Assembly (NCBI GenBank): GCA_963816145.1
Contig: CAWFJP010000029.1
Coordinates: 224,001 to 288,000 of the forward strand
Length of the DNA: 64,000 bases
Reading direction: 5' to 3'
From: an uncultured delta proteobacterium
GTDB lineage: Bacteria > Desulfobacterota > Binatia > UBA9968
Shown here piece by piece: positions 23,139 through 64,000 of this stretch (its first letter is position 1; the number at the start of each line of letters is the position of its first letter). A program made the position numbers and the translations under genes. The notes under the pieces were generated by a model. The model was not told where the DNA came from. It saw only the letters and a list, made by a program, of their open reading frames with translations, and did not search any database.

Positions 23139-24968
23139 TCACATTAACAGTATCCCTTCGTTAGCCGTTGCGTCCGCCACCATTGGCAAATGGACGCTAA
23201 TGGTCGTGCCCTTGTTCAACTCGCTGGAGATTTTGAGTTCGCCGCGATGGGCCTGGACGATGTGCTTGACGATTGCTAGGCCGAGGCCGGTGCCGCCAAG
23301 ATCGCGCGACCTTGCCTTGTCCACACGGTAAAAGCGTTCAGTCAGTCGAGGTAGATCTTTTTCGGGGATTCCCACGCCGCTGTCTGCGACGGCGATCTCG
23401 ATTTGCCTCACGCCGCTGTCGTCCGTTTCGCATTCGGCCGCGCTCAGCGTCACTTTGCCGCCCGGCGGCGTATATTTGACGGCGTTGTCGACAAGGTTGA
23501 TGAGAAGCTGCTGCAAGCGATCCGGGTCGCCGCTGATCTTACCGCATGGTGTGCCAATCTTCTGGGTGAGTTTGATATCTTTCTTGGCCGCCCGGTCCCA
23601 GAAAACTTCGAGGGTTTGCTGCACTAGTCTTGCCGTATCCACCGGCTTTGGCGTGATCTGAATCTTGCCTGACTCGAGATCGGATAACGTCAATAGGTCT
23701 TCGGTCAACCGGCCGAGCCTTTCGGCATGGCGCTCGATAATTTCGAGAAACTGCTGCCGGTCTTCGGCCTTACCCGGGGGGGAATGGATCAGTGTTTCCA
23801 CGTAACCTTGGATGGCCGTCAATGGGGTGCGCAATTCATGCGAGACGTTGGCGACAAAGTCGGAGCGGATGGTCTCGAGCTGTTTAATTTTCGTGACATC
23901 GTGAAAGACGAGGATGGAGCCCAAGGTCATGCGTTGGGGATTGCGCAGTGGCGCGGCGTTGACGCTGAACCAATAGCCATCCTCCAATTCGATCTCTCGG
24001 CTGAAGGTCTGACTGGTAAAATCAAATCTCAAAACTTCCTCGAGAATCGCATGAATTTCCGGATGGCGAGAAAGTTCTAAAATCGACACCCCAAAAACCT
24101 CGCGTCCCGGAGGCACATGAAACATTCCTCTGGCTTGGTCGTTGACGACGAGCACGTTGCCCTTGGGGTCAAGCACTAGGACTCCCTCTATCATGCACCG
24201 TAATATCGAATCGGCCTTCTCTTTTTCGCTGATGATATCGGTGAGGTTGTCGCGAATCCGCTGGCACATGTCGTTGAGATGCTGCTCCAAGAGGCCGAAT
24301 TCGTCTTGATTGTAGCTCGGAAAAAAATCTTGCGGAAAGCTTCCTTGGGCGATCTTGCCTGAAAACTGCACCAACCGTTGGACACGCCGGCTAAGATAGC
24401 TGGAAAACCACCAAGCGAGCATCAGACTGGCCAGAGACGCGACCAGCAAGCCGGCGAATAAGGAGCGGCGCATATTACGGTTCACATCGTCGAACTCTTT
24501 CAAAGGGATCGAAATGCGGACAATACGTTGCTGCTTCTCGCCGCGCTGATAAAAGGCCCGGTACAGCATGTCGAAACCAACGGTGGTGCTGTAGCGCTGC
24601 GAGCTGGCGGTGGTCGATTTTAGCGCATCGATGATCTCGGGGCGGCGCCCATGATTCTCCATTTTTTCCGAAGACTCGGCAGAATCGCCCAACACTTTGC
24701 CATCAATGGCGATGACGGTGATGCGCACGCCCAGTTCGCCGGCGAGTTGGCGGCAGATCTCGTCGAGGTCGGCGCCTTCTACGCCGAAGGGCAACACTCG
24801 GCTGAGCAAGTGGGCCTCCTGCTCCATTCGATTGCCGAGGGTTGCGATGTGAAAATCGCGAATTAGGCTGTTGGAAGAAACGTAAAATCCCAGAACAAGC
24901 AGCAGTGCGACCGCCAAGTAGGAGAAGAAAACTTTGTTGACGAGACTAAGATTCCAGAGCCTTTTCAT
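23139..24968 (-). CDS. phoR: Phosphate regulon sensor histidine kinase
   Basis: 2 TM, HAMP, PAS, DFVANVSHELRTPL, NLVDNAVKY, ERFYRVDKARSR, GTGLGLAIVKH. Confidence 0.93.
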   Translation of the reverse strand: MKRLWNLSLVNKVFFSYLAVALLLVLGFYVSSNSLIRDFHIATLGNRMEQEAHLLSRVLPFGVEGADLDEICRQLAGELGVRITVIAIDGKVLGDSAESSEKMENHGRRPEIIDALKSTTASSQRYSTTVGFDMLYRAFYQRGEKQQRIVRISIPLKEFDDVNRNMRRSLFAGLLVASLASLMLAWWFSSYLSRRVQRLVQFSGKIAQGSFPQDFFPSYNQDEFGLLEQHLNDMCQRIRDNLTDIISEKEKADSILRCMIEGVLVLDPKGNVLVVNDQARGMFHVPPGREVFGVSILELSRHPEIHAILEEVLRFDFTSQTFSREIELEDGYWFSVNAAPLRNPQRMTLGSILVFHDVTKIKQLETIRSDFVANVSHELRTPLTAIQGYVETLIHSPPGKAEDRQQFLEIIERHAERLGRLTEDLLTLSDLESGKIQITPKPVDTARLVQQTLEVFWDRAAKKDIKLTQKIGTPCGKISGDPDRLQQLLINLVDNAVKYTPPGGKVTLSAAECETDDSGVRQIEIAVADSGVGIPEKDLPRLTERFYRVDKARSRDLGGTGLGLAIVKHIVQAHRGELKISSELNKGTTISVHLPMVADATANEGILLM

Positions 24969-25665
24969 CGAACTTGTAGCCGACTCCGCGCAGCGTCAGT
25001 ATCCATTGCGGATTACTATCGTCTTTTTCAATCGCTTTGCGCAAGCGGCGAATATGCACATCGACGGTGCGCGGGGTGACGAAGGTGTCCCCGCCCCAGA
25101 CGCGATCGAGAAGTTGATCGCGGTTGAGTACCCGGTTGGGGTTCTGCACGAGAAATTTCAACAGCTCGAACTCCTTAAGGGTTAACTTGATTGGTTTGCT
25201 CTGCACTGAAACTTCGTAGGTGGCAAAATCGATCTTTAGCCCGCCTTTTTGATAGGCCGGCAGAGTCTCAGTCTGGCCGGTGCCGTTAGTCCGGCGCAAG
25301 ATAGCCCGCACCCGGGCGACCAACTCACGCGGGCTGAAAGGTTTGGCCAAATAGTCGTCCGCGCCAAGTTCCAGACCCAGGACGCGGTCCGCTTCGCCGG
25401 ACTTGGCGGTCAACATGAGGATCGGCAGTTTTGCGGTATCATCTTGGCCACGAAGCGTTCGACAAAGCTCCAAACCTGACATTCCCGGCATCATCAGATC
25501 GAGGATGACCAGGCTCGGTTTGTCGCGGTGAATCAGTTTAAGCGCTTGGTCGCCGTTTTCAGCTTCGATAACTTTGTAGTGGTCTTGAGTGAGGTTGTAA
25601 TGCACCAGTTTGCGAATATCGGGCTCGTCCTCAACGACGAGGATCTTGTATGCGGCGTTACCCAT
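24946..25665 (-). CDS. phoB: Phosphate regulon response regulator (OmpR family)
   Basis: ILVVEDE, ILDLMMP, LTAK, GADDY..KPF, RTVDVHIRRLR, TLRGVGY; lies between phoU and phoR. Confidence 0.92.
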   Translation of the reverse strand: MGNAAYKILVVEDEPDIRKLVHYNLTQDHYKVIEAENGDQALKLIHRDKPSLVILDLMMPGMSGLELCRTLRGQDDTAKLPILMLTAKSGEADRVLGLELGADDYLAKPFSPRELVARVRAILRRTNGTGQTETLPAYQKGGLKIDFATYEVSVQSKPIKLTLKEFELLKFLVQNPNRVLNRDQLLDRVWGGDTFVTPRTVDVHIRRLRKAIEKDDSNPQWILTLRGVGYKFDEKALES

Positions 25666-25671
25666 AATTTG

Positions 25672-26370
25672 CTAAACCGACGGCGGCACTTCCTTCATGT
25701 GGCGAATGCTTTTCCCTTTGACCATGAAGATCACCATTTCGGCGATGTTGGTCGCGTGATCGGCGATGCGCTCGAGATACTTCGAGATCGAACTGATTTT
25801 GGTCGCGCGGCTGATGGTTTGGGCGTTTTCAAGCATGAACGTTAGGGTCTCGCGGAAGATTTGCGCGTTCAGGTCATCGACATCGGCATCGTCCTTACAC
25901 ACCTTGAGCGCGAGATCGGTGTCTTCTCGGACGAAGGCGTCGAGGCTTTCGTGAATCATCCGCTGGGAAATGCGCGCCATGCGCGGAATGTCGATATAGG
26001 GTTTGAGCTGCGGCTCCTGGTTCAGTTCAAGAGCGCGCTCGCAGATATTCACCGCCATGTCGCCAATCCGCTCGAGATCGGTGGTGATCTTAAGTCCGGT
26101 CGTAATCAGGCGCAGATCGATGCCGGCGGGCTGGTGCAGGGCGAGCAGCTTGATGCACAATTCGTCGATTTCCACATCCAACCGGTTTACTTCATGGTCG
26201 CGTTCGATGATGATGTTGGCGAGATCGGAATCCCGGTCGACCAAAGCTTTGATCGATTTCTGAATTTGATCTTCGACCAGTCCGCCCATGTAAAGAATTT
26301 CTTCACGTAGTTTGGATAGCTCTTCTTCGTATTTCTTGTCTGTATGTTGTGTCGTCATCCCTTCCTCCAA
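25672..26370 (-). CDS. phoU: Phosphate signalling protein PhoU
   Basis: HQPAGIDLR, DLERIGDMAVNI, YLERIADHATNIAE. Confidence 0.96.
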   Translation of the reverse strand: MEEGMTTQHTDKKYEEELSKLREEILYMGGLVEDQIQKSIKALVDRDSDLANIIIERDHEVNRLDVEIDELCIKLLALHQPAGIDLRLITTGLKITTDLERIGDMAVNICERALELNQEPQLKPYIDIPRMARISQRMIHESLDAFVREDTDLALKVCKDDADVDDLNAQIFRETLTFMLENAQTISRATKISSISKYLERIADHATNIAEMVIFMVKGKSIRHMKEVPPSV

Positions 26371-26372
26371 GA

Positions 26373-27236
26373 TTAACCGAAACGGCCGGTAATGTAATCT
26401 TCAGTTTGGCGCTTTTCCGGAGCAGTAAACAGTTTTTGGGTCTCGCCAAATTCGACCAACTCACCGACATAGAAAAACGCGGTATAATCCGATGACCGGG
26501 CCGCTTGTTGCATATTGTGCGTGACGATCACGATTGTAACTTTTTCTTTTAATTCGTGGATGAGCTCCTCGATTTTGGCCGTTGCGATCGGATCGAGGGC
26601 CGAGCAGGGTTCGTCCATCAACAGCACTTCGGGATCCACTGCCAATGCGCGCGCTATGCAAAGTCTTTGTTGTTGCCCGCCGGACAAGCTGGTCCCCGGC
26701 TTTTGAAGATTATCCTTCACTTCATCCCAAATCGCCGCGTTCTTGAGACTGCGTTCGACTTTTTCCGCGATCAATTTTCGATCGCGGATCCCATTCAATC
26801 GATATCCGGAGGCAACATTGTCGTAGATCGACATGCTGGGAAAAACATTCGGCTTCTGGAAGACCATTCCAACCCGGCGACGCACGTCGACCGGATCGAC
26901 ACCGGGGCCATAGAGGTCTTGGCCGTCGAGCAGCACTTTGCCTTGGACGCGCCCGCCCGGGGTGACTTCGTGCATGCGGTTGAGGCAGCGAATGAACGTC
27001 GATTTGCCGCAACCGGACGGGCCGATAATCGATGTAACCTGATTGGTTCTGACCGACATATTGACGTTTTTGACTGCCCGGACATCGCCATAAAAGATAC
27101 TTAAATCTTCGACCTTGAGCCGGATATCTTCTGCTGGAACCGACGCCTTGTTCTCCGAGCCATGAAGGTCGCTGCGGCTGATCAGCTCTTTCGGCGCATG
27201 GGCCTCATCGCTCATGTGAACTCCCCCATTATTCAT
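26373..27236 (-). CDS. pstB: Phosphate ABC transporter ATP-binding protein
   Basis: [56 protein letters not shown]. Confidence 0.97.
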
Positions 27237-28098
27237 GTGACTTCCCCCTCAGAAATGTACGCGTCAAGACGCTGGTAAACAATACCACCGCCATCAATAC
27301 GAACGATGCAGCCCAGGCCTTTTGATGCCAATCGTCATAGGGTCCAGTCGCGTAGGTGTAAATGAGCATGGGCACCGTGGCGATTGGCTTGCTTAGATTC
27401 AAATTCCAAAAGGGATTGCCGAAGGCGGTGAACAACATCGGCGCCGCTTCGCCAAGAGCTCTTGAGACCGCGAGGATCGCGCCAGTCAACAATGCTGTCT
27501 TCGAGACCGGCAAAACTACCCAGAGTATTGTGCGCCATTTCGGCACGCCCAATGCCAATGACGCTTCCCGCAGCGAGGTTGGAACTAGTCGAAACGCCTC
27601 GTGGGAGGTGATAACCAAGATCGGCACCATGATAAAAGCGTAGGCAACCGAGCCGGAAAATCCCGAGAATGCACCGAAGGGTTGAACCACCATGTCGTAG
27701 GCGAACAGGCCGACGACGATGGACGGCACCCCGGTCAACACCTCCGCCATGAATCGCACCGTACGGCCGAGCCGGGCGCTGGGAAACTCATTGATAAAGA
27801 TGGCAGCGCCCAAGCCGATCGGTAACGCCATCAGCGTTGCGACGATGACCACGAGTATGCTACCGACCAGCGCGTTAGCGATACCGCCGCCGGACTCGCC
27901 AGGGGGCAACGGCAGCTCGGTCAGAAATGACCAGTCAATAGCGGTTGCACCGTTATAGACGACGTAGCCTAAAATCATAAAAAGTAGCGATACCGTAACG
28001 CTCGTGCAAAGCACCATGCCGATCCAGGCAAATCGTTGGACGATTTTGCGAAACGGGTAATTACTCGGCGTTGCTGCGAGATTCATTGCGCTCATCAT
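27229..28098 (-). CDS. pstA: Phosphate ABC transporter permease
   Basis: [39 protein letters not shown]. Confidence 0.95.
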
Positions 28099-28104
28099 CT
28101 TACC

Positions 28105-29103
28105 TCATTCAAAAACCGCGACCTTGCCTTTGGAAAGCTTCCAGATCATCCACTGGGCGCATAGGCTGATGACGATCGTGATGCCAAACAAAACAAGTCC
28201 AACATAGATAAGCGAGGACACATACAAGCTGTAAGTTGCCTCGGTGAATTCGCTGGCAATTTGACTCGCCATGCTGTGCACGGGGTCGAATAAAGAGTGA
28301 ATCATATCGAAAGAATTTCCCCCGACCATCGTGACCGCCATGGTTTCGCCGATGGCCCGGCCCAAACCAAGAATCACGGCGCCAAATAGGCCGACGCGTG
28401 AGTAGGGCAGCGCCACTTTCCATATCGCTTCCCATTTGGTCGCGCCCAACGCTAACATGCCTTCAATTTGCGGGCGCGGCACGGTCAAAAGGATGTCGCG
28501 GGAAATCGCCGTGACGATTGGCAGGATCATGATCGCGAGAATGACGCTGCCGGATAGCACGCCGACGCCGTAGACAGCCGGACCATCGAAAAGGAAAAAC
28601 CAGCCGAAGTTGGCCTTGAGCCAAATTTGCAGCGCGCGAATGATCGGAACCATGACGAACAGACCCCACAATCCAAAGACTATGCTTGGAATCCCCGCTA
28701 ACAATTCAATCGGGTAGGAAATAAACGGCCGCAGCCACTTCGGTATGTAAAAGGTAATGAAGACGGCGGAACCGATACTAATCGGCACCGCGAGCATTAG
28801 ACCGAGAGAGGCTTTTACCAGTGTGCCGATGATCGTGGGCAGCGTGCTGAATTCGCGAGTGACCGGATCCCACTTGGTGCCTACGAGAAATCCTAAACCA
28901 AATTTTTGGATGGCCTCCCAGGCGCCGTGAACAAGGTTTATCACCAACGCAATCCCGAGCACGATCACCGTGACTGCGAAAGCTCGGGTGACAATGTAAA
29001 ATAGCCGGTCACCAGCATTGGTCACAATCACATCATGATGTACCGCGGGCGCGGAAATTCCAGTCGGGAATGTTCTATCGATCGCTTGGGATGGCTCGCT
29101 CAT
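28105..29103 (-). CDS. pstC: Phosphate ABC transporter permease
   Basis: ELLAGIPSIVFGLWG, ALGATKWE, GRAIGETMAVTMV. Confidence 0.95.
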   Translation of the reverse strand: MSEPSQAIDRTFPTGISAPAVHHDVIVTNAGDRLFYIVTRAFAVTVIVLGIALVINLVHGAWEAIQKFGLGFLVGTKWDPVTREFSTLPTIIGTLVKASLGLMLAVPISIGSAVFITFYIPKWLRPFISYPIELLAGIPSIVFGLWGLFVMVPIIRALQIWLKANFGWFFLFDGPAVYGVGVLSGSVILAIMILPIVTAISRDILLTVPRPQIEGMLALGATKWEAIWKVALPYSRVGLFGAVILGLGRAIGETMAVTMVGGNSFDMIHSLFDPVHSMASQIASEFTEATYSLYVSSLIYVGLVLFGITIVISLCAQWMIWKLSKGKVAVFE

Positions 29104-29126
29104 TGAGTATCTCCGGGCTGATAAGA

Positions 29127-29162
29127 AAGGCGCAGCCGCTACTCACGCACCGGCTGCGCCTT
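29127..29162 (-). terminator. Stem-loop between pstS and pstC (terminator or mRNA-stabilising hairpin)
   Basis: AAGGCGCAGCCG-N12-CGGCTGCGCCTT. Confidence 0.6.
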
Positions 29163-29181
29163 GCATAAAAAATAGCGCTGA

Positions 29182-30243
29182 TTACTTTAACACTAACCGG
29201 TTGTTGAGCTTGATTTTCTTGACTAGGGCCTCAGCTTTTTTTACGGCGACGCCTTTCAGCGGGGCATAGTCCAAGGGCGTCGCGTATTTTTGGCCGTCCG
29301 TAACCATCCACATCGCGAGATTTGCCACCGCGTCGGCCTTAGCTTCGTTGGTCTGGTTCTCGTAAACCAGCAGCCAGGTGAAACCGCTGATTGAATAGGC
29401 GGCGGGATTGGCGCTGTCGGTTATGACGACTTCCATATTGTCCGGCAGATCTTTTTGATCCGCTGCAGCGGCCGCGCCCTCGAGGCTTGGATCGAGAAAT
29501 TTACCGGATTTATTGCTCAGTTGCGCCCACGTGAGTTTGGTCTGTTTAGCGTAGGCAAGCTCGACGTAGCCGATCGCGCCAGGGATCTGCTTTACCGAAT
29601 TGGCAACGCCTTCATTGCCTTTACCGCCGACATCGCCAGGCCAGTTCACCGAAGTGGCCGAGCCAACCTTCTCTTTCCACTCTGAGCTGACTTTAGAAAG
29701 ATAGTTGGTAAATATAAAGGTGGTTCCCGAGCCGTCCGAGCGATGCACCACCGCAATGGTCAGGTCAGGCAGGTTCATTCCGGGATTGATCGCTTTGATC
29801 TTGGCATCGTTCCATTTGTTGATCTTTTTCAAGTAAATGTCGGCGAGCACTTCGGGGGTGAGCTTGAGCTTGCTTGTTGGAATACCGGGGAGATTAAAGA
29901 TGACCGCTTCAGCTCCGGCCACAGTCGGGATGTGAAGCACCGCGCCACCCTTGGCTTCGGCTTTCTGCTTGTCGTCCATGACGCCATCCGATGCCCCGAA
30001 GTCTACCGTCTGTTCCTTGAGTTGTTGGATGCCGCCGCCCGAGCCGATGGATTGATAGTTCACCTTCACCCCGCAAATCTTGTCGTATTCGGCGAACATC
30101 TTGGAGTAGAGGGGATAAGGGAACGTTGCGCCCGCACCGGTCAGCTCTTTAACCCCTTTTGTTGGACAGCCCGCCACGGCGGCGGCGTTGGTGAAAAGCA
30201 ACGCACTTACGGCAACTAAACCTGCAAAACTTTTAGATTTCAT
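29182..30243 (-). CDS. pstS: Phosphate-binding protein
   Basis: GAGATFPYPLY, YQSIGSGGG, VDFGASD, VHRSDGSGTT, GGKGNEGV, IGYVELAYA. Confidence 0.97.
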   Translation of the reverse strand: MKSKSFAGLVAVSALLFTNAAAVAGCPTKGVKELTGAGATFPYPLYSKMFAEYDKICGVKVNYQSIGSGGGIQQLKEQTVDFGASDGVMDDKQKAEAKGGAVLHIPTVAGAEAVIFNLPGIPTSKLKLTPEVLADIYLKKINKWNDAKIKAINPGMNLPDLTIAVVHRSDGSGTTFIFTNYLSKVSSEWKEKVGSATSVNWPGDVGGKGNEGVANSVKQIPGAIGYVELAYAKQTKLTWAQLSNKSGKFLDPSLEGAAAAADQKDLPDNMEVVITDSANPAAYSISGFTWLLVYENQTNEAKADAVANLAMWMVTDGQKYATPLDYAPLKGVAVKKAEALVKKIKLNNRLVLK

Positions 30244-30284
30244 TTGATTTTCTCCTTTGTTTGTAAGGTTATTAAGCTCGGATT

Positions 30285-30453
30285 GTTAACGACGCGTTAC
30301 GGCATTGTTAAGCTTGGATAAAGCCGCAAGGACTGCGACAGCGCGAATAAGGCTTGACCTGATTGGGCGATATCTGCTTCATCTGTTAAGTTTGACGGGA
30401 AACTAAAGCCGAGCTGTGAATGATGTGTGACGGTAGGGTTAAGAATAGATTAA
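30285..30453 (-). promoter_or_regulatory. Pho-box-like 11-bp-period direct repeats upstream of pstS (two arrays)
   Basis: Plus-strand GTTAA 30285, GTTAC 30296, GTTAA 30307, ATAAA 30318; GTGAA 30416, GTGAC 30427, GTTAA 30438, ATTAA 30449. Confidence 0.7.
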
Positions 30454-30487
30454 ATTGGTTTACGGATGGCGCTGATATCGGATTATC

Positions 30488-30706
30488 TTAACCGGCGGTT
30501 AACAGTGCCTAGTACATTTCAATCCGGATTGAGCTCACGATTTCACTAGCACGCATGTGAAAAGGGGCGTTGCCTGAGCGCTCTACAATAAGCTGATTTG
30601 GATTGATCTGCTGCCCATGGATTTCAGTTTGGCTATGAAATGCGATGGTGGTCTTGAAGAGGGAGAGCTGGGTTACAATCTCTTGCGGCTTAACAAGAAC
30701 TTAACA
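30488..30706 (+). promoter_or_regulatory. Pho-box-like repeats upstream of the kinase pair
   Basis: TTAAC at 30488/30499 and at 30690/30701 (11-bp spacing). Confidence 0.6.
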
Positions 30707-30797
30707 TTCAAAACCGGCCTTTTTCTGGAATCTCTGAAGGAGGCTTTGATAGGCTCGCTGGGATACTGTCGGATAGGCAAGCAACACATTTAAAGTT

Positions 30798-31532
30798 ATG
30801 GCTATTGGTATGAAAATGTACGGTAAACACCGCTTTCCTGGGCGGTTGTTTATCGTCGAAGGTATCGATGGCTCGGGCAAGAGCACGCAGCTATCCTTGC
30901 TCAAGAAATGGCTGGAGTCCGAAGGCTATGTGGTTTACTTCAGCGAATGGAATTCTTCCCCGCTGGTTGCCGACGTCACCAAGCGGGGCAAGAAGAAAAA
31001 GATGTTGACGCCGATGACTTTTAGCCTGATCCATGCGACCGATTTTGCCGATCGCACTGAGCATCACATCATCCCGCCGTTGAAAGCCGGCGCGGTGGTC
31101 CTTGCCGACCGTTATGTTTACACGGCGTTTGCTCGCGACGTCGTGCGCGGCGTCAGCCCGAAGTGGGTGCGCGAACTTTACGCCTTTGCGGTCAAGCCGA
31201 CCGTAGCCTTTTATTTTCGGACGCCTTTGGAAGTATCGATGAAGCGAATCTTGGGCGGCCGGGACGCGATCAAGTATTACGAAGCGGGCATGGATCTCGG
31301 TTTAAGCGACGATCTCGAACAGAGCTTCCGGCTGTTCCAAGGGCAGATTATCGATGAGTACGAAAAGATGGTCGACGAATTCGGACTTGTGGCTATCGAT
31401 GCCACGCGGTCCATCGAGGAGCAGCAGGCCGAAGTGCGCCGCCTCGTTACCGCAGCATTGGAAGGAACCAAGAAAGCCCAGGTGAGACGATGGCTCGATT
31501 TAGCTTCTTTGGCGAAGGACTCCCGGAAATAG
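30798..31532 (+). CDS. Thymidylate-kinase-like protein (candidate PPK3-type catalytic subunit)
   Basis: Walker A EGIDGSGKST, LIHATDFADR, VLADRY; polyphosphate gene context. Confidence 0.8.
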   Translation: MAIGMKMYGKHRFPGRLFIVEGIDGSGKSTQLSLLKKWLESEGYVVYFSEWNSSPLVADVTKRGKKKKMLTPMTFSLIHATDFADRTEHHIIPPLKAGAVVLADRYVYTAFARDVVRGVSPKWVRELYAFAVKPTVAFYFRTPLEVSMKRILGGRDAIKYYEAGMDLGLSDDLEQSFRLFQGQIIDEYEKMVDEFGLVAIDATRSIEEQQAEVRRLVTAALEGTKKAQVRRWLDLASLAKDSRK

Positions 31533-32185
31533 ATCTGGCGGAATTGAAAGGCAAGCTGATCGTTCTGGAGGGGACGGACGGTGTCGGCCGCTCGACCCAT
31601 ATCGGCTTGTTGAAGCAGTGGCTGGAAAATCATGGCCATGCGGTGCTAGACACCGGCATGACCCGTTCGGCACTGGCCGGAAAGCGGCTAAAGCAAGCCA
31701 AAGAGGGCAACACCCTTGGCGGCATCACCCTGAGCTTGTTTTATGCCACTGACTTTGCCGATCGTCTGGAAAATGAAATTATCCCAGCGCTGCGCGCCGG
31801 CTTCGTTGTGCTGACCGACCGCTACATCTATTCTCTTATGGCAAGGGCGATCGTCCGCGGCATGGATTCTGAGTGGTTGCGCGAGGTCTACGGCTTTGCC
31901 TTGAAGCCCGACGCGATTTTCTATCTACGCGTCAACATCGACGACTTGGTGACGCGCGTCTTGCAGAGCGGTGGTTTCGATTATTGGGAGTCGGGCATGG
32001 ATCTGCGCATGGGCGAAGATCTTTATGAGAGTTTCATCCGCTATCAGAAATGGCTGCTGGCCGAGTTCGACAAGATGGTCGAGCCCTATGGCTTCGAAAT
32101 TATCGACACCTCGAGCTCGATAGAAGAAGTGTTCACAGATTTGCGCTGGCGGGTGGACAGCGTCGTCGAAAGTAATGGCGGCTAG
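31490..32185 (+). CDS. Thymidylate-kinase-like protein with altered P-loop (candidate PPK3-type partner subunit)
   Basis: EGTDGVGRST (Lys replaced by Arg), LFYATDFADR, VLTDRY; 43-nt overlap with the upstream paralogue. Confidence 0.8.
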   Translation: MARFSFFGEGLPEIDLAELKGKLIVLEGTDGVGRSTHIGLLKQWLENHGHAVLDTGMTRSALAGKRLKQAKEGNTLGGITLSLFYATDFADRLENEIIPALRAGFVVLTDRYIYSLMARAIVRGMDSEWLREVYGFALKPDAIFYLRVNIDDLVTRVLQSGGFDYWESGMDLRMGEDLYESFIRYQKWLLAEFDKMVEPYGFEIIDTSSSIEEVFTDLRWRVDSVVESNGG

Positions 32186-32200
32186 AGACCTGCCGAAGGT

Positions 32201-33103
32201 TTATTGCGCCGCCGCGCCGGCGCGCCAAGTTGCCCAGGCTTGCTGCACTTTGCTGCCGTGTTGTAGAGCGGTTGCCACGTCGCTGTCATAGCGCAAGCGT
32301 TCCTTTTCCATCTCTGCCAGCAAGATTCGGCCGATGTCGGGATGGTCAGCCAGAAAGCCCGGCCGCCCGATGAACTCGGCGACATGATGGAGCAGCACCG
32401 AGCGGTCATGCCAGTCACCAAGGGTGGTCTGAATTTCTCTGAGTGATGTGACCAACGGTTTCACTTTTGATGGGTCAAGCTCGGATAATAGCTCGGCACG
32501 GTAACGCAGCTTTTTGCCGGCGATGCGCAGGGCATGCAATCCCGCGGCATCCGGCTGTTCCCGCGTCGCGGCGAACGACTCCTGCCACCGGTTCATGGAC
32601 TTTGCCATGGCGCCGATAGCTTCCGCGACAGGATCGAAATCGCGCTCAGCCGTGTCAATCAAACGCTGCACCCTGATTGCGAACTTGAACAGATCTTGAC
32701 TCGCGATGTCGCGGCGCACTCGTTCAATCAACGGTTGGCGTTGCGACTCTAATGCGCTTTGCATCGATCCCCAGGCGTTCTCAACGCTGGCGTTGCCGCA
32801 ACGCTCGCCCTTGGATTTGACTAGAGCGATGTTGACATCGAGGTCGCGGCAGGGCCCCAAAACTTGTCGCACATAGCGAAGATCGGCAAAGATTTTGTTG
32901 ATCTTTTTTGACTGGGTTGGCGACGCGACGACACGTAAAGCCTGCTGTAGTCGCCGGCTCCAGACGCGCAGATCATGGATCGCTTCAGGATCGTCGGTGA
33001 TGAGCATCTTGGGCAGAAGCGTCGAATACTTTTCCAAGCGCCTTCGTGTCAGCTTGAGCAGTTTGGTTTGCGCTGAAGCTGCTTCTGTTGCCGCTGCGCT
33101 CAT
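32201..33103 (-). CDS. CHAD domain (polyphosphate-binding) protein
   Basis: DPEAIHDLRVWSRRL, LGPCRDLDV, LHALRIAGKKLRY.AE, Q..LGDWHD. Confidence 0.92.
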   Translation of the reverse strand: MSAAATEAASAQTKLLKLTRRRLEKYSTLLPKMLITDDPEAIHDLRVWSRRLQQALRVVASPTQSKKINKIFADLRYVRQVLGPCRDLDVNIALVKSKGERCGNASVENAWGSMQSALESQRQPLIERVRRDIASQDLFKFAIRVQRLIDTAERDFDPVAEAIGAMAKSMNRWQESFAATREQPDAAGLHALRIAGKKLRYRAELLSELDPSKVKPLVTSLREIQTTLGDWHDRSVLLHHVAEFIGRPGFLADHPDIGRILLAEMEKERLRYDSDVATALQHGSKVQQAWATWRAGAAAQ

Positions 33104-33109
33104 GATCGC

Positions 33110-33634
33110 TCAGTCTTTGTCTGAACGTTGCGCCATCAGCCTTAACTGTTTGGCGGTCAGTAGCCAATGCAGTGCGCCAGACTTTTTCGCCGTCAGAGCG
33201 TCAATTTCGACCCGGCACAGGGACCCTTTGCGAAGGTTGAATTCGCATGTGGCTTCCCGGTTTGCGTCGATTAAGCTCGCTAGCATTTGTCCCAGAAGAG
33301 GTTGGTGACCGACTAGCAGCAGATGTTCGCGGTCCTGGTAACGGGTCAAGCCAAACAACAGGTGCTCGACCGAACTCTCGGGCGCGAGCCCGGAGATTTC
33401 TTCCAGGCGCGACTCCATACCCAATGTCGCGGCGACGATTTCTGCAGTTTGGCGCGCCCGCAGGACCGGACTGGTCAAAATGCCATCGAATTTGATGCCC
33501 AACCGGCGCAATCCGCGCGCGGCGAGCCGCATACGTTTGGCGCCCTTGTTGGTTAACGGCCGTTGGTTATCATGAACGATACTGGGATCGCCGGCGTCGA
33601 CCGCGATGCCATGGCGCATCAGATAGAGATTCAT
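33110..33634 (-). CDS. sixA: Phosphohistidine phosphatase SixA
   Basis: LYLMRHGIA, RPLT.KG, TSPVLRARQTAE, LLVGHQP. Confidence 0.92.
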   Translation of the reverse strand: MNLYLMRHGIAVDAGDPSIVHDNQRPLTNKGAKRMRLAARGLRRLGIKFDGILTSPVLRARQTAEIVAATLGMESRLEEISGLAPESSVEHLLFGLTRYQDREHLLLVGHQPLLGQMLASLIDANREATCEFNLRKGSLCRVEIDALTAKKSGALHWLLTAKQLRLMAQRSDKD

Positions 33635-33655
33635 CGCTCAGTCGGCGTGGAATGT

Positions 33656-34096
33656 TTAAGCGACGTTACGCCAATAGTCCATGAATAGGGCGAAAACCCG
33701 CTTTTCAATCTTGTCGCGCTCTTGACGCAGAGCGTCCAGGTCTTCACCTTCGGACGGCTTGCTCTTAAATTCGTCAGCAACCGGCCAATTTTCGATCTTG
33801 GCGCGTCCGGGCAAGTTGGCGCATTGTTTGTGGGCATCGCCGAAACTGACGACCAAATCGATTTCGTCGACCGGCACGTCGGCTAGCCCTTTGCTTTTCT
33901 GCTCAGCCATGGCGACGCCGATCTCGTTCATCGCCTTGATGACCGCGGCCGGAATCCGTCCGGGCTTGATGCCGGCGCTAAAAATACGCGTTTTCGGAGG
34001 CGACAAATGCTTGGCTGCAGCCTCCGCCATCTGGCTCAGCTGGGCGTTGTCTTCGCAAAGAAAAAGGATGTTTCTATCATGAATCTCTCGACGCAT
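33656..34096 (-). CDS. LMW-PTP/ArsC-fold protein with degenerate active site
   Basis: ILFLCEDNAQLSQMAE, SAGIKP, MNEIGV....QKSK, IDLVVSFGD; the Arg of CX5R is missing. Confidence 0.85.
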   Translation of the reverse strand: MRREIHDRNILFLCEDNAQLSQMAEAAAKHLSPPKTRIFSAGIKPGRIPAAVIKAMNEIGVAMAEQKSKGLADVPVDEIDLVVSFGDAHKQCANLPGRAKIENWPVADEFKSKPSEGEDLDALRQERDKIEKRVFALFMDYWRNVA

Positions 34097-34117
34097 TCTC
34101 TCCTCCTCAGAATCACG

Positions 34118-35668
34118 CTACCGCGGACGGGTTGGCCTACTCTTTTCAATGATTAGATCGACATTAAAAACCTCTTGAATAAGTTTACCTTTTTGTCCGG
34201 CCCAGCGAATTTCTTGTTTGAGATCGGCGGCTGAAGCTGCCGATAGGGTCAAGGTACGGGCTTTCTTGAACGTGCAGCTTAGGTTGTCTACCTGTTGGGC
34301 ATGCCTAAAGTCAAACGCATCGGCGACCCGCACCAAGGCGCTGAGCTTGCGGACGATTTCCTGATTTGGCGGTGACAGTTGGCTGAACCCGAGATGCTTT
34401 GGACTGGGGTGTGCTTTACGGTGATAGCGCGCGACATTGGCGACCAGATCGAGATCGAGCCGATTGAAAGAGTTCATACCCGAACTTTTGATTAGATAGT
34501 AAGAATGTTTATGGTGCTTCGGACCAGCGAGGAAAAGGCCTATGTCATGTAGCATCGCCGCGGCATGAAGAATGCTCGCGTACTTCTCGGGCAGTTGGTG
34601 CAGCTCATGCAGTTGGTAAAACAGATTGACCGCCAATTGACTGACATGGTGCGCGTGCGCGGCGTCGTAGAGATATTTTTGGCAAACCTGATCGAGGGAT
34701 TCGGTGCGGTCCGCGTCCGGGTGCCATGGGCCGCTTTCCGAGTAGCGCCGTTGCAGGAGATCGACCATCAAGCCGTCGCGCAGACCTCTGCGGGAGACGA
34801 AAATATACTCCAGGCCGATCTCCGACATGATCTCGTAAAGGACGAATCCGCCGGCGATGATGATATCCGCTCGTTTGGGGTCGCCGCTGATCATGGCGGC
34901 GCGCTCGGCGGCGGGCTCGTTCAGCAAAAGTTCCAACAGGGTTTTTAGTCGTTGGCGCCGCAGCACGATCAACGATCCGGCGCGATTCGGATCGCCGGTA
35001 ATACGGGTGTCGGTCTCCGCCAGGGCCGTGATCGTGCCGCCGCTGCCGAAGGCCATGGTGAACTTTTCTTGCTGGATCCGCCGCACCACGCGCTTGAGCT
35101 GCGGCTGAATATAGTCGCGAAGTTCTCTGATCTCTCTGTGACGGGGCGGGTCATGGGCGATGAGCTTTTCGGTCAAACGAACCGCGCCCAAGGGCAGACT
35201 GAACAGGCAATAGGTGTTGGTGGTGTTGGCGACCGCAAGTTCGACGCTGCCGCCGCCGATGTCGAGGAATAGACCGAGCGGGAGATGAAAGCGCAAGCCG
35301 CTCATGATGCCCAGACTGATGAGCCGAGCTTCATGTTCTTCAGATAACACTTCGAGGGGAATACCCAGCTTGGCGGCACGATTGATAAATCCCCGGCTGT
35401 CCGATGCTTCGCGCAGCGCGCTGGTGCCGACGGCGCGAATCGCTTTGACGTGAAATCGGTCGGTGAGTTTTTTGAAATCGCCAAGGACTTTGATCGCCGC
35501 CTCGACCGTCTCCGGGTTTAGCTTGCCGGTCCTGAAGACATCATGTCCCAAGCGCACCGGCTGGCGGTCTTGTTCGATAACCCGATAATGTTTGGGCTTG
35601 TCGACGACCGCCACCTGGCAACGCATGGCGTTGCTGCCGACGTCGACGACCGCGAAATGTTGTGCCAT
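34118..35668 (-). CDS. ppx: Exopolyphosphatase Ppx/GppA family with C-terminal HD domain
   Basis: VVDVGSN, GTSALREA, DIGGGSVEL, GLRDG, AAMLHDIG, HHKHSYYLI, VARYHRK. Confidence 0.95.
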   Translation of the reverse strand: MAQHFAVVDVGSNAMRCQVAVVDKPKHYRVIEQDRQPVRLGHDVFRTGKLNPETVEAAIKVLGDFKKLTDRFHVKAIRAVGTSALREASDSRGFINRAAKLGIPLEVLSEEHEARLISLGIMSGLRFHLPLGLFLDIGGGSVELAVANTTNTYCLFSLPLGAVRLTEKLIAHDPPRHREIRELRDYIQPQLKRVVRRIQQEKFTMAFGSGGTITALAETDTRITGDPNRAGSLIVLRRQRLKTLLELLLNEPAAERAAMISGDPKRADIIIAGGFVLYEIMSEIGLEYIFVSRRGLRDGLMVDLLQRRYSESGPWHPDADRTESLDQVCQKYLYDAAHAHHVSQLAVNLFYQLHELHQLPEKYASILHAAAMLHDIGLFLAGPKHHKHSYYLIKSSGMNSFNRLDLDLVANVARYHRKAHPSPKHLGFSQLSPPNQEIVRKLSALVRVADAFDFRHAQQVDNLSCTFKKARTLTLSAASAADLKQEIRWAGQKGKLIQEVFNVDLIIEKSRPTRPR

Positions 35669-35713
35669 GGAGTGGCTTCATATCACAAACAACTGCCGGT
35701 CGAAATTGTTCAG

Positions 35714-35740
35714 GTTAAAATTTGGTTAAATCTGAGTTAC
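35714..35740 (-). promoter_or_regulatory. Pho-box-like repeats upstream of ppx
   Basis: Plus-strand GTTAA 35714, GTTAA 35725, GTTAC 35736. Confidence 0.7.
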
Positions 35741-35771
35741 GCGCGGCTGTGATGGCAGTGCAGCTCCAATT

Positions 35772-36140
35772 CTAAAGTTTGTTATCGCTAACTTTGCGCA
35801 AAAATCGAACGATCTGGCCCTCGGCGGGTCTCGCCCGATGGGCTTTACGATGCGCGAGCTCCTCCTGACTAACCAGGTGATCGGCAAGCTGCTGGACGAG
35901 TAAGGTGGCCTCTTGAATGGAGCGTGCGAACATCTCGGCTTCACGATCCAGTTCACAATCGGAATGCGCACGGAAGCGAGATAGTATTTGAGCGCCGACG
36001 AGGTTGAGCACCGTTAACTGATTGATTAGTTCGTGGGCGAGATGGCTCAGGGGCGGCCGTTGGCACCGCGAAGCTATCTCGGTTTGCATATGCATATTGG
36101 GATGGTGCCGCTTTGGAATCGCCGTGTGTTTGATAATCAT
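35772..36140 (-). CDS. Stand-alone HisKA/DHp-like protein
   Basis: LSHLAHELINQLTVLNL...FARSIQEATLLVQQL matches an H-box helical hairpin; start uncertain. Confidence 0.55.
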   Translation of the reverse strand: MIIKHTAIPKRHHPNMHMQTEIASRCQRPPLSHLAHELINQLTVLNLVGAQILSRFRAHSDCELDREAEMFARSIQEATLLVQQLADHLVSQEELAHRKAHRARPAEGQIVRFLRKVSDNKL

Positions 36141-36156
36141 AATGAGATCCTTTGTT

Positions 36157-36714
36157 TTATTGAATGGGCAGTGCGGCGGTACGATCGGGCAATGCCCCCG
36201 GCTCGCTGTTGGCCGCACGCGGGGTTGAATGGCTCTGTTGCAGCTTCTCGACCAGATTGCGTTCCATCGGTGAGTAGACGATTGCCAGCGTCCGCACGGC
36301 CCCCAGCACCAAAGCCATCAGCGCCAGGGCGGCGAGCTGTGTCGGCGAGCTTTGATGCTGGTACAGGCCGATCATGACCTCGCGCAGGATGAAAACCAAT
36401 GTTGCATCGATGATGAAGGTGAGCTTGAGCCGGTGCTCGCGGAAGTACTCGACAAGGCTTTTGAACAGCTCCAGGATAATGAAAAAGGTAAGCAAGTTGG
36501 TCACAGTGTGACCGAAGGCTTCTTTCAGCTCTTGCCCCGCCATGACCTTCCAAACATCCCAGAACAGTCGCACCAGGCCAATGGTCAATACCAGGACAAC
36601 GAAGAAAATCAGCAGCTTGAAAAAACCGTCGATGACCTGGTTAAAAAATCTCACGGCTTCAAAACGTCGCCAGAACTCCAGTAGTTTTCGTTTCGCCTGG
36701 GAGTACGTGTTCAT
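36157..36714 (-). CDS. Phosphate-starvation-inducible PsiE family membrane protein
   Basis: LLTFFIILELFKSLVEYFREHRL....IIDATLVFILREV; 4 TM helices. Confidence 0.88.
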   Translation of the reverse strand: MNTYSQAKRKLLEFWRRFEAVRFFNQVIDGFFKLLIFFVVLVLTIGLVRLFWDVWKVMAGQELKEAFGHTVTNLLTFFIILELFKSLVEYFREHRLKLTFIIDATLVFILREVMIGLYQHQSSPTQLAALALMALVLGAVRTLAIVYSPMERNLVEKLQQSHSTPRAANSEPGALPDRTAALPIQ

Positions 36715-36784
36715 CCCTGATTCAACCTCTGCGGGTCGATTTCTCGCAGCTTGCTGCATCGCACTAATTGGCATTCCCAAGTCC

Positions 36785-36860
36785 GTCATTCCCGCATGTC
36801 TTTGGCGGGAATCCAGACGAGTCCGGAACTGGCCCCCGGATAAAAACATTCAGGGGTGAC
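36785..36860. repeat. REP-like element (GTCATTCCCGC...GGGAATCCA family)
   Basis: gtcattcccgcatgtctttggcgggaatccag ... ggggtgac. Confidence 0.65.
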
Positions 36861-36941
36861 CAGATTCGGAATCGTTCGCTGGCTGGGCCTTCGATACCCC
36901 GCAGTTTGCTCCGCGGTAGTTCAGTTTGATTCCTCACAAAG

Positions 36942-37484
36942 TTAAATCTCCACGCTGCGCTGCTTCGGCCAGCCGAAAAACAGCGGCGCCAGCTTGCCGC
37001 GCCAGGGATGCGACGGCAGCGGCTGGGTGATCGACAACACCGGGCAAGGGCTTAACCGGGTGACCCGGTCGGTGATGCCGCCGCCGAACCAATGGCGTAG
37101 GCCACGGCTGCGCCGCGGCGACATTATGATCAAATCGGCTTTTTCCTCGTCAGCCATCGACGTGATACGTTCTGGAACGTTGCCGAGAATAACTCGCTTG
37201 GTTACGCTTGGCAGCTGTTTAAGATTGGCGAGATGAGGCTCCAGGAAGTGGTTCAGGTCGAGCGCCGCCTCGCTGACAATGCGATCGAGCGGCCATACTT
37301 GGCCGTGATTGCCGGTGTAGATCTCAAACTCGGTCGATAATTCCCAGGCGTTGAGTTCGTTGGCGACATGCAGCACGACAAGCGCCGCTTTATCCTCCGC
37401 CGCCAGTCGGCAACCATAGGCGATGGCGCGCCGGGAATGTTCCGACAGGTCGGTGGGCACCAAAATTTTGTTTAAGCTTTTCAT
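36942..37484 (-). CDS. Universal stress protein
   Basis: KILVPTDLSEHS, LVVLHV, ADLIIM, GGITDRVTRLSPCPVLSI. Confidence 0.92.
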   Translation of the reverse strand: MKSLNKILVPTDLSEHSRRAIAYGCRLAAEDKAALVVLHVANELNAWELSTEFEIYTGNHGQVWPLDRIVSEAALDLNHFLEPHLANLKQLPSVTKRVILGNVPERITSMADEEKADLIIMSPRRSRGLRHWFGGGITDRVTRLSPCPVLSITQPLPSHPWRGKLAPLFFGWPKQRSVEI

Positions 37485-37563
37485 AAGTTCTCCTTTTTAA
37501 TTTTGATGGAGATAGCTTAAGGTTCGCGTATTAGCGGGTGATGACAAGGTCAAGAACAAAAGG

Positions 37564-38121: not shown

Positions 38122-38166
38122 GGGTTTCTCCTTTGTCATATTTGACGGCGAGCTTGGCGAGCTTGG

Positions 38167-62059: not shown

Positions 62060-62166
62060 GTTACAAGCGAGTTTGAACTTGATGAACATTCGATTGCGGA
62101 TTGGCTTGGTTGGAGGGTCATGTTGATGGTTAAGCGATTTAACCTCACCTTAACCAAGCTGTAACA
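62060..62166. promoter_or_regulatory. Pho-box-like arrays in the DUF3047/ppk1 divergent region
   Basis: GTTAC/GTTTG/ATGAA/ATTGC at 62060-62093; TTAAC 62139, TTAAC 62150, GTAAC 62161. Confidence 0.7.
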
Positions 62167-62260: not shown

Positions 62261-64000
62261 ATGGATGCGAATACCTATATCAATCGTGAATTGTCGTGGT
62301 TGGAGTTCAACCGGCGGGTGCTCGAAGAAGCCAAGGATGAGAGCGTGCCGCTGTTGGAGCGGGTGAAATTTCTGGCGATTTTCAGTGCCAATCTCGATGA
62401 ATTCTTTATGGTGCGGGTCGCGCGGCTCAAAGCGATGCTGTTCGAGGGGGATAACAGCTGCGACCCCGACGGTCTGACGCCGGCGGAAGCATTGTCGGCG
62501 ATTTCGGCGCGAGTGCACGAATTGGCCGCTGAACAACACTTATGTTTCCTCAACACCATCATGCCTCAACTGAGCGCCGAAGGAATTCATCTGGTTCGTC
62601 CCGAAGAGATGAGCGGCGAGCAAGAGCGGTTTCTCGAAGAATTCTTCCTGCGCACGCTCTATCCGATCGTTACGCCTCTCGCTATCGATCCGGCCCATCC
62701 GTTTCCTTATTTGGCCAATCGCTCGCTCGGTTTGGTGGTAGCCTTGCAGCCGATGCTGGCTTCACGTCTGCCCCACACCGATCTTTCCATCGTGCACATC
62801 CCGACTCAGGTGGCGCCGCGTTTCATTCCTCTGCCGGCGCGCGATGGACAACATGCCTTCATGCTGTTGGAAGATACCTTGCATCATTATCTGCCGCGTC
62901 TTTATCACGGTTTTAAGATTGTCTCGTGCCATGCCATCCGGGTGACCCGGGATGCCGATTTCCTGGTGTCACGGCGGCGCGACGAGGATCTTATGATGAC
63001 CATTGAGAAAGGCATTCGCGAGCGACGCATGGGCGATGCGGTGCGGCTACAATACGATCCCGATCTACCGGTCGAGATCGTCACTCAGTTGGTTGAGCAG
63101 CTGGAGCTCACGCGTGAAGATCTCTACCCGGGCAAAGGTTTCACGGCATTCACCGATTTGTTTCAGTTATACGGCGCCGTGAACCTGCCGCGCCTCAAGG
63201 ATCGGCCTCAGGCGCCGTTGCCGGTGCCGGCCTTCGAGCGCGCGCCCGATATTTGGAGCGCGATTCGCAACGGCGACGTTTTGGCGTTTCATCCTTATCA
63301 GTCATTTGATGCCGTGGTGCGTTTTGTCGAGGAAGCGGCCAAGGATCCTAAAGTATTGGCAATTAAGATGACGTTTTACCGAGTTAGCCCAACCTCACCG
63401 ATTGCCCAAGCGCTCGCACGGGCAGCCGAGGCAGGCAAAGAGGTGTCGGTGCTCGTCGAGTTGCAAGCGCGCTTTGACGAGGAAGCCAACATTAGCTGGG
63501 CGCGCGCGCTGGAGGAGGTCGGCGCCCATGTGGTTTATGGGCTGGTCGGTTATAAGACGCACTGTAAAATCTGTTTGGTGGTGCGTCAGGAAGCCGATGG
63601 CATTCGCCGCTACTGCCACCTGGCGACGGGAAACTACAATGTCAGGACCGCCGGTGTTTATAGCGATCTCGGTTTGTTCACATGCCGCGAGACGTTCGGC
63701 CAAGATTTGACCGAGCTGTTCAATCTGTTGACCGGATACACGCGACCGCAAAAATTCAACCACTTGATCTTGGCGCCGATCGGTCTGCGTGAGTATTTCA
63801 TAAACGCCATTCGCCGCGAGGCCGATCATGCGCGCGCCGGGCAGCCGGCGCGGATCATCGCCAAGATAAACAGTTTGGTCGATCCGTCGGTGATCGAAGA
63901 ACTCTACCTTGCCAGCCAAGCCGGGGTGGAAATCGATCTCATCATCAGGGGCATGTGCAGTTTGCGGCCCGGCTTGCCGGGAATATCCGACCGCATCCGG
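62261..64000 (+). CDS. ppk1: Polyphosphate kinase 1 (partial, runs off the window; absent from the ORF track)
   Basis: MDANTYINRELSWLEFN.RVL, NLDEFFMVRVA, DPAHPFP, HPYQSF, IKMTFYR, VELQARFDEEANI, KTHCK, HLATGNYN, IRGMCSLRPG. Confidence 0.97.
   Translation, partial: MDANTYINRELSWLEFNRRVLEEAKDESVPLLERVKFLAIFSANLDEFFMVRVARLKAMLFEGDNSCDPDGLTPAEALSAISARVHELAAEQHLCFLNTIMPQLSAEGIHLVRPEEMSGEQERFLEEFFLRTLYPIVTPLAIDPAHPFPYLANRSLGLVVALQPMLASRLPHTDLSIVHIPTQVAPRFIPLPARDGQHAFMLLEDTLHHYLPRLYHGFKIVSCHAIRVTRDADFLVSRRRDEDLMMTIEKGIRERRMGDAVRLQYDPDLPVEIVTQLVEQLELTREDLYPGKGFTAFTDLFQLYGAVNLPRLKDRPQAPLPVPAFERAPDIWSAIRNGDVLAFHPYQSFDAVVRFVEEAAKDPKVLAIKMTFYRVSPTSPIAQALARAAEAGKEVSVLVELQARFDEEANISWARALEEVGAHVVYGLVGYKTHCKICLVVRQEADGIRRYCHLATGNYNVRTAGVYSDLGLFTCRETFGQDLTELFNLLTGYTRPQKFNHLILAPIGLREYFINAIRREADHARAGQPARIIAKINSLVDPSVIEELYLASQAGVEIDLIIRGMCSLRPGLPGISDRIR

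Follow-up and report, generated by a model that had tools for sequence, protein, structure and literature searches.

We analysed 64,000 nucleotides of an uncultured delta proteobacterium (positions 224,001–288,000 of contig CAWFJP010000029.1, assembly GCA_963816145.1; hereafter the window), which contain two overlapping genes of thymidylate kinase (Tmk) type, and conclude from their sequences that they encode a bacterial family-3 polyphosphate kinase (PPK3), with a probability of about 0.82. The first gene product (P0001) would be the catalytic, cPPK3-type subunit and the second (P0002) its rPPK3-type partner, while the polyphosphate (polyP) reaction itself is what we infer. Phylogeny, matches to solved structures, residue patterns, the neighbouring genes and the presence of a tmk-holB locus elsewhere agree on a bacterial PPK3-type pair, as had been proposed in an initial annotation made from the sequence alone. 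The enzyme type has already been described in Sulfolobus (2024–2026), and the pair is a further member of it, not a new family.

The characterised enzyme, SaPPK3 of Sulfolobus acidocaldarius, is described in the main text of Hofmann et al. (J Biol Chem 2026, PMC12995831; preprint 10.1101/2024.08.28.610084) as an alpha2beta2 heteromer of Saci_2019 (cPPK3) and Saci_2020 (rPPK3), whose genes were formerly annotated as dTMP kinases and stand beside sixA, ppx and CHAD. This matches the background given in the initial annotation, namely that in Sulfolobales two adjacent genes annotated as thymidylate kinases form a heteromeric PPK3, with similar pairs beside CHAD, SixA and PPX in other archaea. Bacterial PPK3 operons are already predicted in the same text on grounds of phylogeny and neighbourhood. 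The bacterial counterpart suggested for the window is supported in its identity, but the idea of bacterial PPK3 pairs is not new.

The two open reading frames (ORFs) overlap by 43 nt, with the start of P0002 inside the c gene, and their translations show the two Tmk-like paralogues and motifs that had been reported for them. P0001 has an intact Walker A motif (GIDGSGKST, with K28), ATDFADR and YYEAGMDL, whereas P0002 has GTDGVGRST, in which Arg replaces the Walker-A Lys (R34), together with ATDFADR and YWESGMDL, and the two proteins are 44% identical (92/210). The DRY motif of P0001 is D104-R105-Y106, its lid comprises R150, R155 and K159, and it carries a basic loop, TKRGKKKK. P0002 retains DRY (D110-R111-Y112) and is without the c-type lid residues R155 and K159 and without EWNSS. 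The ATDFADR stretch was considered as the DRX motif and ruled out, as a Tmk alignment and the column table described below put DRX at the later D104-R105-Y106; the ATDFADR helix lies within the subunit interface of the complex model.

The sole Pfam match of either protein is PF02223 (Thymidylate_kin, ~75 bits each), and the PPK2 profile PF03976 gave no match for either at E-values up to 0.01. In the PDB, the best match of both is 2plr/5h70 (209 bits for P0001, 144 bits for P0002), which is the S. tokodaii cPPK3 homologue STK_15430 (PMC12995831, section 7), and canonical Tmks there reach at most 53 bits with P0001 and 47 bits with P0002.

Archaeal relatives were searched in 201 genomes of the phylum in which a Nitrososphaerales match had been found, 53 of which had a match at E ≤ 1e-30. 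Most of these were Tmk-like single genes (106–136 bits), whereas 14 genomes had a c-type match of 271–322 bits; the adjacent r gene scored 215–227 bits in eight of the 14 and was much more diverged (98–128 bits) in the other six. We read the six-genome group as Sulfolobaceae because one of its c proteins scores 357 bits against 2plr.

Phylogenetic trees were built from a selection of rows (24 of 80 bacterial loci, four of the eight and five of the six archaeal loci, and 14, then 12, outgroup rows). A careful maximum likelihood tree of 80 rows, which left out two long-branch rows (a deoxynucleoside kinase (dNK) and one archaeal Tmk), gave the same picture as a quick tree of 82 rows. The 12 canonical Tmk rows of the careful tree split off at 100/100, and apart from them the window pair falls into c and r clades that it shares with the archaeal subunits. 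All 34 r rows, including P0002, the bacterial r subunits and both archaeal r groups, form one clade (support 100/95), which also takes in a second copy from a Melainabacteria locus, and all 34 c rows, P0001 among them, form the other (93/77). The nearest relatives of P0001 and P0002 come from the same loci, L009 and L012 (88% identity). P0001 is 52% identical to a Sulfolobaceae c subunit and 22% identical to the Tmk of its own genome; for P0002 the identity to the Sulfolobaceae r subunit is 30%. The r subunits of two Verrucomicrobiota loci (L083, L088) and one Nitrososphaerales locus (L084) have ADQ in place of the usual ADR in the ATDFADR helix (R86/R92 column). Their placement with both archaeal r groups in the tree (99/98) is a hint of transfer among these lineages.

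Residue patterns were compared in a column alignment of 205 rows, comprising c subunits (78 bacterial, 8 Nitrososphaerales and 6 Sulfolobaceae), r subunits (76 bacterial, 8 and 6), canonical Tmks (13 bacterial, one of which, L128, is from the unpublished genome G206, and 9 archaeal) and dNK; ORFs with fewer than 150 profile positions were dropped and duplicate L089 rows left out. The Walker-A Lys (K28) is present in every c subunit (78/78 bacterial, 8/8 and 6/6 archaeal), and in its place Arg is found in all bacterial (76/76) and all Nitrososphaerales (8/8) r subunits, while the Sulfolobaceae r subunits have Lys in four cases and Arg in two. All 78 bacterial c subunits have K28, D104-R105-Y106, R150, R155 and K65, and 73 of the 78 have K159; the archaeal c subunits keep these residues too. 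A set of residues is conserved in c subunits only (E50-W51-N52-S53, H79, D114, R155, K159 and Q209-Q210), alike in the bacterial and Sulfolobaceae groups. Neither c nor r subunits keep the residues that all canonical Tmks of the alignment share, namely the Arg at the F83 column, Glu-Pro at 51–52 and Tyr-Gln at 113–114, which we take to be the dTMP contacts of canonical Tmk. That dTMP-binding residues are not conserved in PPK3 is also stated, in general terms, in PMC12995831.

The DRX arginine (R105) is kept in all c rows, in 75/76 bacterial r subunits and in 8/8 Nitrososphaerales r subunits, but is Gly in 6/6 Sulfolobaceae r subunits. The published account ascribes the inactivity of rPPK3 to loss of this arginine (PMC12995831, section 7). 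As bacterial and Nitrososphaerales r subunits retain it, we read the loss as a Sulfolobaceae trait and not a family-wide one. The Arg P-loop of bacterial r subunits finds no mention in the main text of that paper, although its supplements may show it.

By these patterns, P0001 keeps all catalytic elements of the Tmk fold, and polyphosphate would be held by the conserved basic and polar residues that replace canonical ones. The proposed reaction, in its most likely form, is polyP(n) + ADP <-> polyP(n-1) + ATP. P0002 is probably non-catalytic, because its P-loop Lys is changed to Arg and the c-type lid residues are missing; translated from its overlapping start, it likely binds and activates P0001 through the classical Tmk dimer helices. 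Heteromer formation and control by PhoB (see below) are likewise proposed. Within the PPK3 assignment, P0002 might instead be a nucleotide or polyP sensor or a slower second site, or the pair might prefer another acceptor, such as AMP, GDP or other nucleoside diphosphates, over ADP. The widely retained DRY arginine of bacterial and Nitrososphaerales r subunits (R111 in P0002), against Gly in the Sulfolobaceae, and the strong conservation of r subunits (86–97% identity among the 119 matches listed besides P0002) would fit such a role. However, the Walker-A Lys is replaced in 76/76 bacterial r subunits, R155 and K159 are missing, and the archaeal r subunit that has been characterised is inactive by itself (PMC12995831, section 9), and we regard this variant as improbable.

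A 1:1 model of the P0001–P0002 complex (alignments A1 and A3) scored 0.69 against 0.01 for the best control, passing a mark that 58 of 80 solved complexes and 2 of 110 mismatched pairs attain. Agreement between runs is 89% of contacts or more, and the partner pLDDT is at least 79. The predicted interface (c residues 71–89 and 117–130; r residues 76–94 and 126–136) is the classical Tmk dimer surface.

Relatives of the pair are widespread. At E ≤ 1e-10, a collection clustered at 90% contains no fewer than 8000 relatives of each protein; among the matches listed, queries excluded, identities are 79–96% to P0001 (n = 120) and 86–97% to P0002 (n = 119), and the named ones are a ‘dTMP kinase’ or ‘thymidylate kinase’ of metagenome-assembled genomes (MAGs) of Candidatus Binatia, Deltaproteobacteria and Alphaproteobacteria. 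Against 1.84 billion representatives at 50% identity, P0001 had 7545 matches at E ≤ 1e-3, 1699 at ≤ 1e-10 and 392 at ≤ 1e-30, with Nitrospira, Bryobacteraceae and Alicyclobacillaceae among the named cluster members. Species-representative genomes were scanned with a narrower alignment of 8 rows (A2), a first alignment of 23 rows (A1) being too diverse, and a relative is encoded at no fewer than 549 of 600 pattern matches. We kept 80 loci, which are labelled Binatia/Thermodesulfobacteriota, Acidobacteriota, Chloroflexota, Nitrospirota, Planctomycetota, Armatimonadota, Bacteroidota, Verrucomicrobiota, Actinomycetota, Eisenbacteria and Melainabacteria, plus one Nitrososphaerales archaeon. The nearest relatives are pairs of 87–88% identity in MAGs labelled Binatia, Thermodesulfobacteriota, Syntrophobacteraceae or delta proteobacterium. 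This breadth (at least 549 of 600 matches, and 392 clusters at E ≤ 1e-30) contrasts with the ‘a few taxonomically scattered bacteria’ of the main text of PMC12995831.

Single-chain forms with a c-half followed by an r-half were also observed (P0241, P0003, P0249, P0258 and P0259). P0241 (460 aa, Alicyclobacillaceae, a cluster of five) and P0003 (427 aa, one sequence) are natural c–r fusions, and the forms of 650–696 aa have an extra C-terminal part. In eight further proteins of 771–2575 aa (P0282, P0296, P0313, P0315, P0318, P0321, P0332 and P0380), a c-type domain with 43–51% identity to P0001 lies mid-protein.

The neighbourhoods of the 80 loci were surveyed by tblastn with the window proteins (E ≤ 1e-6) within the flanking sequence. 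An r-type gene lies directly downstream of c at 75/80 loci; at two a contig end cuts the locus, and at three r is upstream. These last are Planctomycetota loci (L049, L053 and L075), with r ~3 kb upstream in the order r-type gene, ~1 kb of another gene, ppx and c-type gene. Near the pair, Ppx was detected at 49/80 loci, SixA at 31/80, CHAD at 20/80 and PPK1 at 2/80, with CHAD probably undercounted by BLAST because it is divergent. At least one of Ppx, SixA and CHAD is found at 53/80 loci, and none at 27/80 at BLAST sensitivity. Those 27 loci, and the want of any bacterial member assay in the literature searches, leave some room for a Tmk-fold kinase of the Pho regulon acting on another phosphate-related substrate, such as a phosphorylated small molecule, with a link to ppx and CHAD that is regulatory only. 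The 52% identity of P0001 to a Sulfolobaceae cPPK3, the c-specific residues common to both groups and the polyP neighbours at the majority of loci argue against this, making it very improbable.

PF02223 is matched by four genes of the genome, namely the pair, a canonical tmk (161 bits) and, weakly, a gene on contig C1 that is a deoxynucleoside kinase (PF01712). The canonical tmk, on contig C4, overlaps holB and is followed by metG, so that a separate tmk-holB locus, which the initial annotation had said should be confirmed, is present. The NCBI dTMP-kinase equivalog TIGR00041 has a cut-off of 83.25 bits, which P0001 exceeds (87.5) and P0002 does not reach (79.7). That P0001 passes explains the database name, and the predicted mis-annotation as tmk is evident both there and in the names of the homologues. 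An ordinary pair of duplicated dTMP kinases would account for those names, for the PF02223 matches and for the TIGR00041 score of P0001, but is scarcely credible beside a canonical tmk-holB elsewhere that is 22% identical to P0001, the tree split, the replaced canonical residues, polyP and Pho neighbours rather than replication genes, and archaeal orthologues without dTMPK activity (PMC12995831, section 9).

Compared with known systems, the PPK3-type pair shares with SaPPK3 its adjacent Tmk-fold paralogues, one of catalytic type and one degenerate, the ppx, sixA and CHAD neighbours, a separate tmk, the loss of canonical-Tmk residues, membership of the same c and r clades and a c–c identity of 52%. 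It differs from the Sulfolobaceae in its r subunit (DRY Arg and Walker-A Lys-to-Arg, where the Sulfolobaceae r has Gly at DRY) and in its layout: SaPPK3 is encoded in a single sixA-ppx-c-r-CHAD operon, whereas the pair here is divergent from pst and convergent with a ppx operon. The host further differs in having two PPK1 and two PPK2 genes, Pho-box-like repeats and a low-molecular-weight (LMW) phosphatase gene in the ppx operon. The window pair belongs with the predicted bacterial and Nitrososphaeraceae PPK3 pairs (PMC12995831, section 8 and Fig. 5 legend), in which, by the column table, an r subunit with Walker-A Arg and DRY kept is the rule.

Canonical Tmk is similar in fold, family profile match, P-loop, DRY and lid layout, and different in the 22% identity, the separate clade (100/100), the replaced invariant residues and neighbours that here are polyP and Pho genes rather than holB. 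Like PPK2, the pair would be a P-loop kinase using polyP on nucleotides, and the combination of an active with an inactive paralogous unit resembles two-domain class II PPK2, with its inactive N-terminal domain (PMC12995831, section 9). Unlike PPK2, neither protein matches PF03976, and the PPK2 genes of the genome lie elsewhere, on contigs C24 and C1. The name ‘PPK3’ is also used for a PPK2-family enzyme of Ruegeria pomeroyi, which is unrelated to the PPK3 pair family.

The pair lies in a phosphate-starvation island (Table 1). A Pfam-based map agrees with the initial annotation that the pair diverges from pstS and converges on CHAD-sixA-ppx, and adds the LMW-phosphatase gene. The left flank, on the minus strand, has a PHO4-type transporter and a PhoU_div gene and then phoR-phoB-phoU-pstBACS. 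Farther right are psiE, usp, an ArsR-type regulator, an SBF/ACR3-type transporter, PAP2, an EEP phosphatase, an ABC system, phoD, glycogen phosphorylase, corA and others. The statement that ppk1 is in the same island calls for qualification: ppk1 starts 30 kb downstream of the pair and does not adjoin it, although the TTAAC repeat described below does stand just upstream of ppk1 as well.

Table 1. Coordinates of the PPK3-type gene pair, its neighbours and the associated repeats in the window.
Feature	Position	Strand	Remarks
cPPK3-type catalytic subunit gene (P0001)	30798..31532	+	244 aa; predicted from sequence
rPPK3-type partner subunit gene (P0002)	31490..32185	+	231 aa; predicted from sequence
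phoR, phoB, phoU, pstB, pstA, pstC, pstS	23139..30243	-	Pfam; phosphate sensing and high-affinity uptake, divergent from pair; phoB at 24946-25665
pstS	29182..30243	-	Pfam; upstream of pair, divergent
Shared divergent control region, pstS/pair	30244..30797	.	TTAAC-N6-TTAAC repeats, 11-nt period, Pho-box-like
Repeats in pstS/pair region	30285-30311, 30438-30453, 30487-30503, 30690-30705	.	Pattern scan
CHAD	32201..33103	-	Downstream, convergent on pair
sixA	33110..33634	-	Convergent operon
LMW-phosphatase/ArsC-like gene	33656..34096	-	Between sixA and ppx
ppx	34118..35668	-	Convergent operon 32201..35668
Two overlapping TTAAC-N6-TTAAC-type sites	35714..35740	.	Just upstream of ppx operon
Two overlapping TTAAC-N6-TTAAC-type sites	62139..62165	.	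~100 nt upstream of ppk1
ppk1 (PPK1 family)	62261..64000	+	ORF open at window 3' end

L009, L010 and L012 likewise have CHAD, sixA, the LMW-phosphatase gene and ppx next to the pair, in unchanged order; in L011 CHAD, sixA and the LMW-phosphatase gene are present and the contig then ends. The LMW phosphotyrosine-phosphatase/ArsC-like gene thus keeps its place in the close relatives L009–L012, and the Sulfolobus operon as described in the main text of PMC12995831 is without it. An ArsR-type regulator and an SBF/ACR3-type transporter (38414-40915, plus strand) adjoin the phosphate island and, taken with the ArsC-like gene of the ppx operon, hint at an arsenate/phosphate link. Beyond the 3' end of the window lies L137 (G000:C29:290932-292029), another Ppx/GppA-like gene, a short one (365 aa, 58.9 bits), and the Pho-type island seems to extend past ppk1. 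On the minus strand, ORFs 17169-17561 and 17539-18264 overlap, and their matches are to the C- and the N-terminal half of a single ABC_sub_bind family; they are probably a frameshifted or split gene. This stretch has a G+C content of 0.49 against ~0.55.

The Pho-box-like repeats that had been reported before the pair are borne out by counting. TTAAC-N6-TTAAC with at most one mismatch occurs at 14 sites in the window against 1.46 expected, a number reached in 0/100 shuffles, and six of the 14 fall in the 554-nt region between pstS and the pair, where the repeat nearest the pair begins 108 nt before the c ATG. Further sites in the window are at 38167 and 60581. The exact repeat has nine sites in the 7.8-Mb genome, six of which lie within the 38 kb around the pair (C29:254488-292466), one of these just beyond the window, downstream of the Ppx/GppA-like L137; other spacer lengths give 1–6 sites genome-wide. 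Three exact sites lie outside the island: one inside an alcohol dehydrogenase gene, which is probably chance, one beside an OprB-type porin gene and one near genes without Pfam matches.

Among relatives, a one-mismatch site is found 98–101 nt before the c ATG in L009, L011 and L012 and at 136 nt in L010, whereas none of 79 related loci has the exact repeat in the 400 nt before its c gene. The putative operator sequence is hence lineage-specific, one-mismatch forms at this position being confined to the closest relatives. Terminator-like sites in 30000–32500 are weak only. Rfam gave no family match in 20000–40000, and so the long pstS/pair intergenic region carries no known RNA element. By its 11-nt period and its location, the repeat is probably a PhoB-type operator. 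The pair shares a TTAAC-rich control region with pstSCAB-phoU-phoBR, and since the repeat also stands before the ppx operon and before ppk1, PPK3 is probably induced by phosphate starvation along with the uptake and polyP turnover genes.

According to PMC12995831 (section 8), most PPK3 hosts are without PPK1 and PPK2; the present genome carries two genes of each family. For description, we compared 13 genomes of the same genus, including the present one (G000) and the unpublished G206, all of them kin and some incomplete. The pair is present in eight, with PPK1 in 4/8 and PPK2 in 8/8, and in the five without it PPK1 is found in 4/5 and PPK2 in 3/5 (one a weak, partial match). In other families of the order, the pair was found in 0/8 genomes. 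One same-genus genome, G208 (98% complete), has no PPK1, PPK2 or PPK3 pair that we could find, whereas each of its sister genomes has one or more of the three.

Four RNA runs (X1–X4) were searched, and are not evidence for expression level or habitat. The metatranscriptome library X1 gave two 151-nt contigs, one of which, with 1 difference, spans 31419-31569 across the c/r overlap and is a weak hint at a joint c/r transcript in a close relative. X2, whose kind is not on record, holds relatives at 90–99% likeness, X3 yielded one partial piece of 33 nt at 90–95% likeness, and nothing came from X4.

Several points weigh against a PPK3 formed by P0001 and P0002. The literature searches found no assay of a bacterial PPK3 member, only the Sulfolobus work of Hofmann et al. 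P0002 retains R111, contrary to the published loss of the DRX Arg in rPPK3, and for that reason its inactivity is argued solely from the Lys-to-Arg change and the missing lid residues. Because the modelled interface is the classical Tmk dimer interface, the pass of the complex model may reflect likeness to solved Tmk homodimers. With two PPK1 and two PPK2 genes in the genome, there is no gap here for PPK3 to fill, and the pair is patchy even inside the genus (8/13 genomes). The X1 contig may be DNA carry-over and comes from a relative, not demonstrably from this organism, and a consensus promoter and terminator scan of 30000–32500 returned no convincing -10/-35 promoter near the repeats.

We nevertheless favour the PPK3 reading, under which PPK1 would make polyP and the pair would spend it, a division suggested by analogy with the 50-fold kinetic preference of SaPPK3 for ATP formation (PMC12995831, section 9). 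A bolder and rather unlikely extension is that the r subunits of bacteria and Nitrososphaerales, with their Arg P-loop, their unbroken DRY motif and only lid residues lost, are nucleotide-sensing and represent the ancestral state, from which the Sulfolobus r has decayed; a Pho-induced PPK3 in hosts with PPK1 and PPK2 would then act as a gated valve, turning stored polyP into ATP only at times when both phosphate and energy charge are low.

The published basic picture of PPK3 is unchanged by these findings; what they add is the bacterial breadth, a different decay of the r subunit, co-occurrence with PPK1 and PPK2 and probable Pho control. The family looks far wider in bacteria than ‘a few bacteria’ implies, and as public pipelines name both subunits dTMP kinase, polyphosphate metabolism is likely under-called in many soil and sediment bacteria. 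Bacterial r subunits differ from the characterised archaeal r in which catalytic residue is lost, which bears on how the regulatory subunit works. Finally, a genome with PPK1, PPK2 and PPK3, the last in a phosphate-starvation island, would offer a natural test of how the making and spending of polyP are divided.

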